Positions 21,858 to 24,294 of a DNA stretch of 64,000 bases are shown here, piece after piece. The notes beneath the pieces were generated by a model. The model saw only the letters and a list, made by a program, of their open reading frames with translations. It made no database searches and was not told the DNA's origin. Each line of letters begins with the position of its first letter. Position 1 is the stretch's first letter. Source of the stretch: a virus; the IMG/VR virus record IMGVR_UViG_3300045988_075249, positions 1 to 64,000 of that record, one strand, 5' to 3'. The position numbers were made by a program, and so were the translations under genes.

Positions 21858-22877
21858 ATGCCAGAAATCCAAAAAGATCTAGTTTTATCCCCAAATGAGT
21901 ACGCTTATGTACTTGATGAAACAAAAGGTAACGTCGCCTGTAACGTAGGCCCGCATAAGATGAGCCTATCTCAGAGCGATAACCTTGTAAAATTTGATAC
22001 AAAGACAAAGAAATTTATTCCTTGTGATAGGTATAATGATGCTATTTCTCTGTTTGTAACTGCGCCTGAAGGTTGGTATATCGCCCTGAAGAATCCCGCC
22101 CCTGGTAATAAACATCCGCAGGCCGGCACCAGTAATTCTATTCCAGAGAATATGGAGATTGGTAAGAAAATTAACATTCCCGGTCCTGCTAGTTTTGCTC
22201 TTTATCCAGGGCAAATGGCTCAAGTCATTCAGGGGCATAATCTCCGCAGCAATCAATATCTTGTCGCTAAAGTCTATGATGCGGATAGTTTGAATACAAC
22301 AAAAGAAGATAGAGACGCCAGCGAGAATGAGCCTTACTTTGTAAACGGCCAAGTTTTAATTATTAAGGGTACTGAAATCTCCTTCTATATTCCTCCTACC
22401 GGAATTGAGGTAAAGGCAATTAACAATGACCCAAGCAAGGGATATGTGCGGGATGCCGTGACTCTTGAGCGTTTGGAGTATTGTATCTTGAAAGATGAGG
22501 ATGGCAACAAGCGATATGTGCATGGTCCCACGGTAGTTTTCCCTGAACCCACAGAGAGCTTTATTAAAGATGGTAATGGCCATATTAAACGTAATGCTAT
22601 CGAGCTTTCTGATATTTCCGGCGTTTATGTCAAGGTTGTTGCCGACTATAAGGATGACAACGGCAAGGAGCATAAAGCTGGAGAGGAACTCTTTATCACT
22701 GGCAAAGACCAGATGATTTATTATCCTCGTCCTGAACATACCTTTATTACTTATAATGGTAAAGTAATGCATCATGCTGTTGCTATCCCAAAGGGCGAAG
22801 GCCGGTATATTATGAATCGCATGACGGGCGAAATTAAAACTGTTAGAGGCCCCCGCAATGTATTTGCCCGATCCTAG
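21858..22877 (+). CDS. Major Vault Protein (MVP) homolog, N-terminal repeat-domain part (339 aa). It ends at a TAG; if read through as Q, 6 more codons follow to a TAA at 22893
   Basis: [22 protein letters not shown] vs human MVP [83 protein letters not shown] vs MVP [54 protein letters not shown]. The MVP sequence is recalled from memory. Confidence 0.6.
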   Translation: [339 protein letters not shown]

Positions 22878-24294
22878 AATCGAAGTTGCAATTAAAAGAA
22901 CTTTAAGTCGTTCTCAGTGTGAACTTTGGTATCCTGGAAATGTAGAAGTCCTTGAAGCAAATGGTCATCCTATTAGTTTAGTTGAAACTAATGGGTTTGA
23001 CGGAGTTACCGCTTCGCTCAATAATCTGTCTAATGTAGTTGGCACATTCGCCGATCCTACTATGTCTATTTCTACAACTACGAAGTATGTTGGAACTCCA
23101 ACCAAGACAGAAACCAATAAAATCAACAGAACTAATACCTTTACTCCTCCTAGAACTATCTCTCTTGATTCTAGTAAATATGAGGGTGCAGTCGCTGTTG
23201 ATGTTTGGACTGGTTATGCGGTTAATGTAATCTCTAAGGACGGAACCCGAGAGGTTGTTGTTGGCCCTCAAACTATCTTATTGGATTACGACCAAACCTT
23301 AGAAGCTCTCGAATTGTCTACTGGAAAGCCCAAGACAACAGATAGGCTTGAAAAAGTTGTATTCCTTCGTTGTGAGAATAATCGAGTAAGTGATATTATC
23401 AATGTTGAAACCAGTGATTTTGTTCATGCTCAGATTAAAGTCTCTTATCATGTTGACTTCAACAAAGAAATGAAAGATGTTTGGTTCTCCGTTGATAATT
23501 ATATCAAGCATCTATGTGACTGGTGTCGCTCTGCAATCAAGAGAGAAGCAAAAGATTTTACCATTAATGAGTTACATGAAGGCTATCATGACATTGTCCT
23601 TAATGCAATAACTGATAGTGGAGTTCCTGAATATCTCCATGAATTTGCAGAAAATGGCATGAGAATTACTGATGTTGAAGTTTTGTCTATTGAAATTGAA
23701 GGTAGTATTCAAGCCCTAATTGATAAGCATCAAGGGGAGATTGTTTCTCGTTCTCTGGCCCTCGCAGCTGCAAAAAACTCCGCGGAGACAGAGAAAGAAA
23801 TTATCGCCTTGAATAAGGAGAAAGTCCAGCTCGCAGAAGACTATGCTCAAAGTAAAGCAATGCTTGAAGCAGAAACAAGAGCTACAGAGTTTGAATTAAC
23901 CGTTGCGGCTCAGCGAGACAAGGACGAAGAGGATAAGCGCAAATATGAGATTGAGAAAGAGATTCAATCTTTGAAAGATGCTATCTTTGAAGCAGAGCAG
24001 CTGAGACTCCAGAAAGAGCGCGAAGCCGAGTTGGAGCATCGGAGAAAAATGTTTGAGATTGAATCTGCTAGAGAGGCCGCGGCCGCAGATTCTATGAAAA
24101 CAATTCTTGAGGCTCTCGGTCCCGATCTCGCAGCGGCTTTAACTACCAGAAGCAATCAAGCGGTAGTAGAAAAGATCGCAGAATCTATTGCGCCATACGC
24201 CGTTGCTGGCGGGCAGCCGGTTAGCCGTGCGGTTTCTGAGCTATTGCGCGGAACTACTCTTGAAAGTGTAATTGATACTCTCAAAAAGGAGTAA
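22858..24294 (+). CDS. Major Vault Protein homolog, C-terminal part (last repeat, SPFH-like shoulder, cap-helix coiled coil), 478 aa, in the +1 frame relative to the upstream part
   Basis: YEGAVAVDVWTGYAVNVISKDGTREVVVGPQTILLDYDQTLEALELSTGKPK...RLEKVVFLRCENNRVSDIINVETSDFVHAQIKVSYHVDF vs MVP [85 protein letters not shown]. The C-terminal ILEALGPD...AVAGG vs MVP EAIGPSTIRDLAVAGPE. Confidence 0.6.
   Translation: MYLPDPRIEVAIKRTLSRSQCELWYPGNVEVLEANGHPISLVETNGFDGVTASLNNLSNVVGTFADPTMSISTTTKYVGTPTKTETNKINRTNTFTPPRTISLDSSKYEGAVAVDVWTGYAVNVISKDGTREVVVGPQTILLDYDQTLEALELSTGKPKTTDRLEKVVFLRCENNRVSDIINVETSDFVHAQIKVSYHVDFNKEMKDVWFSVDNYIKHLCDWCRSAIKREAKDFTINELHEGYHDIVLNAITDSGVPEYLHEFAENGMRITDVEVLSIEIEGSIQALIDKHQGEIVSRSLALAAAKNSAETEKEIIALNKEKVQLAEDYAQSKAMLEAETRATEFELTVAAQRDKDEEDKRKYEIEKEIQSLKDAIFEAEQLRLQKEREAELEHRRKMFEIESAREAAAADSMKTILEALGPDLAAALTTRSNQAVVEKIAESIAPYAVAGGQPVSRAVSELLRGTTLESVIDTLKKE

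Follow-up and report, generated by a model that had tools for sequence, protein, structure and literature searches.

A vault-protein homolog split across two reading frames in a human-gut phage is probably a rare frameshifted allele of an intact gene

When two overlapping reading frames each match a different part of the same protein, what broke the gene, and does the organism make use of the break? The question arises in positions 1 to 64,000 of the IMG/VR virus record IMGVR_UViG_3300045988_075249, a stretch of 64,000 nucleotides (nt) that we call the window. On its plus strand, from 21858 to 24294, lies a major vault protein (MVP) homolog whose reading frame changes at a run of five Cs. An earlier note on this DNA left three possibilities: a sequencing indel in a homopolymer within a single MVP of about 815 amino acids (aa), a programmed +1 frameshift, or a split MVP expressed as two polypeptides. 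Our conclusion is that the split is very probably a real and recent insertion of one C, and that the window carries a rare (~1%) allele of a gut-phage MVP, with probable loss of function.

The two open reading frames (ORFs) are both on the plus strand. The upstream one, in frame 0, occupies 21858..22877 and gives 339 aa under the standard code, ending at a TAG. The downstream one, in frame +1, occupies 22858..24294, gives 478 aa (MYLPDPRIEV...) and ends at the TAA of 24292-24294. Where can the two be joined? A TGA at 22822-22824 closes frame +1 on the upstream side, so a join is possible solely within the 53 nt of 22825..22877, where the three-frame translation has frames 0 and +1 both open, and this stretch holds the C5 run (22850..22854, plus strand, within GGCCCCCGC at 22848-22856). 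Runs of five Cs and runs of five Gs occur three times each in the whole window, and we estimate the chance of finding either in a given stretch of about 53 nt at ~0.5%, so it is no accident that the frame changes at the C run. The split across a +1 junction at the C5 run is thus borne out, and the run is where the earlier note had placed it, with the downstream part starting at an ATG in the +1 frame as it described.

The codons read in frame 0 across the junction are ACT GTT AGA GGC CCC CGC AAT GTA TTT GCC CGA TCC TAG. The frame-0 product consists of true MVP residues 1-332 followed by the out-of-frame tail RNVFARS, and the downstream ORF covers MVP residues 334-811, starting at Met334 with a GAGG 8 nt upstream. 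The insertion lies within codons 331-333, and the frame is lost after Pro332, in the middle of an invariant GP-M-LPDPR motif.

Removing one C of 22850-22854, or skipping it when the window is translated, gives a single ORF of 811 aa with TVRGPAMYLPDPR as the junction peptide of the full-length MVP. The idea of a single continuous gene therefore holds, and its length is 811 aa rather than about 815. The reconstructed sequence is not hypothetical: it is identical to a protein in the sequence collections (P0121, labelled 'major vault protein' by one source) that is encoded as a single ORF in NCBI, JGI, ENA and Logan data, on 471 contigs or in 840 index blocks. Against these 471 contigs with the intact protein, 1-6 contigs carry the split products.

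We fetched 10 of these intact loci, and all 10 have four Cs. Seven of them (L009-L013, L016 and L018) match the window at every one of the 2,436 other positions of the gene, so that the extra C is the sole difference; the remaining three differ by one base. Two of the contigs with the intact gene, L012 (290,702 nt) and L013 (293,444 nt), are about twice the usual length of ~146 kb and are possibly assembled concatemers or dimers. At larger distances (93-97% nucleotide identity; L001-L005), the extra C is the sole indel across 2,437 alignment columns, and the relatives read GGCCCCGC, the ancestral and common C4 state of the site. In a tblastn comparison, residues 1-332 of the MVP of one of these relatives (L003) match the upstream frame of the window at 98.5% identity. 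Two more human-gut contigs from JGI, found using the left flank alone as an anchor, are also C4.

How far does the single frame extend? In a protein search with the 811-aa query, the full-length homologs number more than 100; each is a single chain of 800-830 aa, and the nearest two (98% and 97% identity) are exactly 811 aa long. In an alignment of 34 homologs reaching down to 53% identity, G331, P332, M334, L336, P337, D338, P339 and R340 are invariant, and few motifs of the protein are as conserved as the one in which the break falls. All 37 loci that we examined in species-representative genomes (38-76% identity) read G[PA]xM[YF]L[PA]DPR in a single frame; they are phage-sized contigs binned with metagenome-assembled genomes (MAGs) of Oscillospiraceae, Eubacterium and Lachnospiraceae (56-76%) and Cytophagales chromosomes (38-47%). 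The two-frame arrangement appears in none of the more than 100 proteins, the 15 close C4 loci or the 37 genome loci. A megablast of 3 kb of the window against a collection of annotated phages gave no match, and tblastn against the same collection found only 38%-identical MVPs in the huge phages LR756500-503; a scan of IMG/VR for the junction, in its C4 or C5 form, gave 0 matches. The exact 339-aa product is found by cluster look-up on one JGI contig of 132,915 nt, from which the window probably derives, and is not in the gene-position index.

The ratio of non-synonymous to synonymous substitution rates (dN/dS) between the window gene and its relatives is 0.04-0.10, and against L003 it is below 0.1 in both halves. 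The gene is thus normally under purifying selection as one unit, and the split is recent. The earlier note had reasoned that continuous ORFs in orthologs would indicate an indel, and a continuous ORF is what all the relatives have.

These comparisons bear directly on the two explanations that would make the arrangement functional. In a programmed +1 frameshift, the ribosome would slip on CCC_C (22851-22854), a tRNA-Pro would re-pair with the CCC of the +1 frame, and full-length MVP would be made by design. The site does have properties that one would look for, as CCC_C permits perfect +1 re-pairing, a GAGG stands just upstream, and a +1 shift at CCC_C yields exactly the ancestral protein. However, the arrangement is kept in no relative, including genes identical to this one at every other base, and the allele is at ~1% frequency. 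After CCC comes CGC, which at 5.6 per 1000 is about as frequent as CGT and CGA and so no rare codon; the phage also encodes a tRNA-Arg(ACG) at 8555-8631. Nor is CCC_C specific, with 8 in-frame sites in the ORFs of the window, and the GAGG is simply part of the ancestral Arg-Gly codons. We regard a programmed shift as extremely improbable.

Alternatively, the gene could have become a functional split gene, in which an N-terminal fragment with the repeats and a C-terminal fragment with repeats, shoulder and cap-helix jointly replace MVP. The downstream ORF begins before the upstream one has ended, at an ATG with a GAGG 8 nt before it, Shine-Dalgarno (SD)-like motifs precede 42 of the 66 ORFs in the window, and phages with the C5 run persist in several samples. 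On the other hand, the break is inside an invariant motif and no relative is split there. Both the ATG, which encodes the invariant Met334, and the GAGG are inherited coding sequence and not an adaptation, and the large MVP deletions in other strains that we describe below indicate dispensability rather than re-engineering. This explanation we consider highly unlikely. A gene that is single-frame in all its relatives and selected as one unit removes both the programmed shift and the evolved split. What the earlier note had offered as two polypeptides is a rare derived allele, not an evolved arrangement, and its suggestion of programmed frameshifting finds no counterpart in any relative.

Is the extra C real, or is the true genome C4 with an intact 811-aa gene and a miscalled homopolymer? 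A sequencing or assembly error is the natural suspicion when a +1 change in the length of a homopolymer, once removed, gives the gene of the common allele, and the more so when the C5 allele is rare and is judged from assemblies. The exact 478-aa and 345-aa products (the latter is the read-through form of the upstream ORF, see below) are found on a handful of other contigs, and all of them carry GGCCCCCGC. These come from at least five assemblies, made by three pipelines from several runs: ERZ843525 (SPAdes, 141,765 nt, 20.9x coverage), ERZ27274229 (MEGAHIT), and SRR5275463, SRR29907876 and SRR29907878 (Logan). The ERZ843525, ERZ27274229 and SRR5275463 contigs match the window exactly or almost exactly. 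The contigs from SRR29907876 and SRR29907878 differ from it by about 28 single-nucleotide polymorphisms (SNPs) in 15.5 kb and are without a 12-nt deletion that the window has at 25242. Overall, the split is confined to near-identical contigs, with a divergence of at most ~0.2%.

Within this narrow group there are two distinguishable backgrounds. Over an 11-kb comparison, the window group has 3-4 differences from the intact L011 and the SRR299078xx group has 12-13 from the intact L013; between one C5 group and the other there are 20-27. Both C5 groups thus resemble C4 strains more than they resemble one another, which places C5 on two backgrounds, either through recurrent insertion or through recombination. 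The window itself is not a noisy assembly, since over 19.9 kb its sole indels relative to L011 are the extra C and the in-frame 12-nt deletion, and the 93 homopolymers of at least 5 nt in the same region (7 of them at least 7 nt) are all unchanged. A systematic error caused by the sequence context would have to contend with the hundreds of assemblies of the same sequence that give C4. We consider an error very unlikely, and the extra C most probably a genuine mutation, in an allele carried by ~1% of contigs. The earlier proposal of a sequencing indel was right in that the run has one C too many; its attribution to sequencing error is probably wrong, given C5 in at least five assemblies and on two backgrounds.

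Compared with most intact strains, the in-frame 12-nt deletion at 25242 leaves a 138-aa ORF with 134 aa; it is common to the window and the contigs L006 and L007 and is not found in the C5 contigs L066 and L067, which are those of SRR29907876 and SRR29907878.

Some points weigh against a real loss-of-function allele. The evidence for C5 consists of assemblies, in which the within-sample ratio of C4 to C5 is not seen as it would be in reads. That the ENA assemblies and Logan runs come from different people and studies is suggested by their accession numbers alone. The downstream ORF has kept an SD-like motif and a plausible start, which would allow both fragments to be made and, conceivably, to associate. 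Finally, there is a hint of decay after the frameshift, though not a significant one: L066 and L067 have a CGT to TGT change (R504C, window position 23368) at an Arg that is invariant in the 34 homologs. We had considered R504C, together with two non-synonymous changes in the neighbouring gene, as a sign of relaxed selection after the frameshift, and dropped it, as non-synonymous changes make up about 50% of the SNPs throughout the comparison of these close strains (12, against 12 synonymous).

Where does the upstream fragment end? The answer depends on the genetic code of this phage. Four conserved genes of the window (13796-17415 and 28690-29964) contain 8 in-frame TAG codons, 1-3 each, and use TAA terminators. 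Relatives have in-frame TAGs in the same genes at partly different positions, and the residue aligned with a TAG is Gln 26 times out of 39. In addition, ARAGORN finds a suppressor tRNA with anticodon CUA (label 'Pyl') on the plus strand at 18859..18933, which explains how TAG is read as sense. The phage thus reads TAG as a sense codon, apparently Gln, and the TAG at 22875-22877 is not to be treated as a stop. Beyond it, frame 0 runs to a TAA at 22893-22895 (22875..22895, plus strand, from the TAG through the TAA), for a read-through product of 345 aa. That product is called on the identical contigs L006 and L007, and with Q at the TAG it is in the protein collection (P0135). The upstream fragment therefore probably ends at the TAA, with 345 aa, and not at the TAG as first described.

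The same recoding causes ORF lists made under table 11 to fragment several genes of the window. We had examined the short ORFs at 13.8-17.4 kb as candidates for further frameshifts, of the kind a noisy assembly would have, and ruled them out because they are due to in-frame TAG codons. The window also has a very large tRNA complement, with 29 tRNA genes and a transfer-messenger RNA (tmRNA; 7487-7802, tag peptide DNDYFENYLAA) within 1101-19825, mostly in one array at 1.1-11.2 kb.

Putting these elements together, the window belongs to a TAG-recoded human-gut phage of ~140-150 kb that carries an accessory MVP homolog of the bacterial and phage kind. A single C has entered the C4 run, turning GGCCCCGC into GGCCCCCGC, and the reading frame is lost after Pro332. 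Translation would then produce an N-terminal fragment of 339 or 345 aa with vault repeats only, possibly a C-terminal fragment of 478 aa by re-initiation at the overlapping ATG at 22858, and at most traces of full-length MVP through spontaneous +1 slippage of tRNA-Pro on CCC_C. Judging from the sequence, loss of function (a pseudogenising change) is the most likely outcome. The phage evidently multiplies without an intact MVP, which fits a dispensable gene and the other independent lesions found in the MVP gene.

These other lesions, found among near-identical contigs, are of several kinds. The 145,771-nt scaffold L023 has lost 1 nt from an A3 run at 22587 and is left with ORFs of 285 and 526 aa, L024 and three similar places have a deletion of ~1,626 nt in the gene, L019 has a deletion of ~1,317 nt, L020 an in-frame deletion of 996 nt, and P0025 another in-frame deletion. 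The left breakpoints of L019, L020 and P0025, at ~22860, 22864 and 22876, are 6-25 nt past the C run, with microhomologies of 6-8 nt, and all three deletions extend rightwards and keep the C run. In L008, the C run has a C-to-G change (GGGCCCGC) that leaves the frame intact, and the scaffold has a gap 32 nt upstream. We tried L008 as a further split allele and rejected it, as the scaffold has 10 Ns and its junction (GGGCCCGC) is in frame. Together, the variants L008, L019, L020, L023, L024 and P0025 suggest that the MVP gene is dispensable and the spot prone to lesions.

L008, a 98%-identical strain, presents some peculiarities of its own. Its DUF2828/DUF7788 neighbour of MVP is split into 264 and 230 aa by a 1-nt deletion at position 2033 (window 20713). 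The N-terminal half of its MVP is ~10% diverged, and in the C-terminal half and the flanks it does not differ from the window. L008 must then be a mosaic strain or else a scaffold that is chimeric.

Could the C run be a hot spot? One may elaborate the insertion of a real C into a stronger proposal, in which the C run, together with the next ~25 nt, is liable to breakage or slippage and loss of MVP is repeatedly selected, for instance as an escape from a host defence that senses the MVP shell or from a CRISPR spacer. For it speak the two backgrounds of C5, both more similar to C4 strains than to one another, the three independent deletions starting just downstream of the run, the C-to-G change and nearby scaffold break in L008, and the further independent lesions in L023 and L024. 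However, the lesion variants were found by searching for MVP fragments, with no unbiased baseline from the neighbouring genes, and recombination could account for C5 on two backgrounds. We looked for a structural cause of the cluster and find no hairpin, no extreme of GC or composition and no restriction-site pattern at the site, and C4 is short for a contingency locus. Altogether this elaboration seems to us rather unlikely. If it were true, the same +C would have arisen independently twice, and MVP would be repeatedly switched off in wild gut-phage populations. The clustering of lesions near the C run, within ~30 nt (22850-22877), is a lead of interest, not an established fact.

Domain, sequence and fold comparisons all bear on the protein as an MVP homolog. 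The Pfam MVP_shoulder domain (PF11978) matches residues 174-280 of the downstream ORF at E 2.5e-18, scoring 66.6 bits where the cutoff is 25. The Vault repeats (PF01505/PF17795) are just below gathering thresholds, with 21.4 bits for Vault in the upstream ORF (cutoff 27) and 27.7 bits for Vault_3 in the downstream ORF (cutoff 28.8). Using phmmer, residues 464-766 align with rat MVP 478-815 (E 3.6e-17). The AlphaFold model is confident for the shoulder and cap-helix only; the latter is a continuous helix over residues 615-750, with a predicted local distance difference test score (pLDDT) of mostly ~70-85, falling towards the end. The top 12 Foldseek matches are all vault MVPs (E 9e-21 to 6e-15), and SPFH proteins (prohibitin, HflK/C) have E-values of 5e-7 or weaker. 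Against the murine R1-R7 crystal structures, Foldseek reports E 7e-6, in a region where the model has low confidence. We had hoped to use the model to place the break in the fold, and it is unusable for this, with pLDDT <50 across residues 127-450. As for the register around the junction, the earlier note had aligned the downstream start with human MVP (YMLTQDEV...); HMMER instead places RGPAMYLPDPRIEV on rat MVP at approximately residues 363-376, in a segment that is weak by itself. It is the orthologs, and not the HMMER alignment, that prove continuity across the junction.

Upstream of the MVP gene, on the same strand, is a 507-aa DUF2828/DUF7788 protein (19955..21478; Pfam 2e-41 and 1.2e-31) that precedes MVP in every related locus. 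On the 3′ side (25628-29964) are cREC_REC, an RlaP nucleotidyltransferase, a metallophosphoesterase, an RNA ligase, and Thg1-like and KTI12/AAA_33 proteins, and in relatives NAD-salvage genes follow as well. A similar RNA-repair set has been reviewed for large phages (PMC7824862). This conserved neighbourhood of RNA-repair and NAD genes may bear on the role of the phage MVP. Further downstream, a 194-aa ORF at 31550-32134 has the appearance of two genes fused by a deletion. Over its first 74 residues it corresponds to the 270-aa phosphoribosyltransferase found in relatives, and from there on to residues 108-240 of the NAD synthase that they carry. The genes that stand between the fused parts in L003 and L009, a YqeY-like gene, a 122-aa ORF and a 529-aa NAPRTase, are lost in the window strain.

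For annotation, the locus should be entered as one frameshifted MVP gene (a pseudogene allele), not as two genes and not as a recoding site. It would also mean that a widespread human-gut phage can do without an intact homolog of the vault protein, and that the gene is dispensable. The C5 strains are then natural knock-outs in which the role of the phage MVP could be studied.

How does this locus compare with known systems? Well-known programmed +1 sites are the CUU_UGA of prfB, with its upstream SD, and the slippage of proline codons at CCC_N. The window site has the same CCC_C re-pairing and a GAGG upstream, and it differs in that the arrangement is not conserved and the A-site codon is neither slow nor a stop. 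Phase-variable tracts are typically much longer than 4-5 nt. The likeness to homopolymer-tract alleles and contingency loci lies in a +1 change of a run that switches off a non-essential gene, on more than one background; here the tract has only 4-5 nt. With respect to the genetic code, in-frame TAGs, TAA or TGA terminators and a suppressor tRNA(CUA) are the same as in the gut phages that use code 15 (TAG to Gln), and there is nothing unusual about the window.

The gene itself is of a kind already described in gut phages, and the window copy is an ordinary frameshifted allele of it. The human-gut Caudoviricetes ctOa11 and ct2Ri15, which are large, uncultured and group with phages of Firmicutes, carry single-ORF MVPs of ~811 aa, and a 99%-identical MVP copy has been linked to a Clostridium sp. 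contig (bioRxiv 10.1101/2023.11.10.566534). The window has the same homolog of ~811 aa with a +C frameshift, a likeness drawn from their published description. The close relatives that we found are on contigs of ~148 kb binned with MAGs of Oscillospiraceae, Eubacterium and Lachnospiraceae. Bacterial MVP homologs are also reported in Cytophagales and Myxococcales (bioRxiv 10.1101/872010).

In comparison with eukaryotic MVP, the phage protein is at 16-18% identity and has 811 aa versus 861-893. The eukaryotic protein forms the vault shell, and the phage protein is known here from its sequence and model. The neighbours of the phage gene are the DUF2828/DUF7788 protein and the RNA-repair and NAD genes, and the partners of eukaryotic MVP, TEP1 and PARP4, are not among them. 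What the phage protein and the MVP of the rat and human vault shell (PDB 4V60, 4HL8, 9BW5) have in common is the shoulder, the cap-helix and, probably, the N-terminal repeats.

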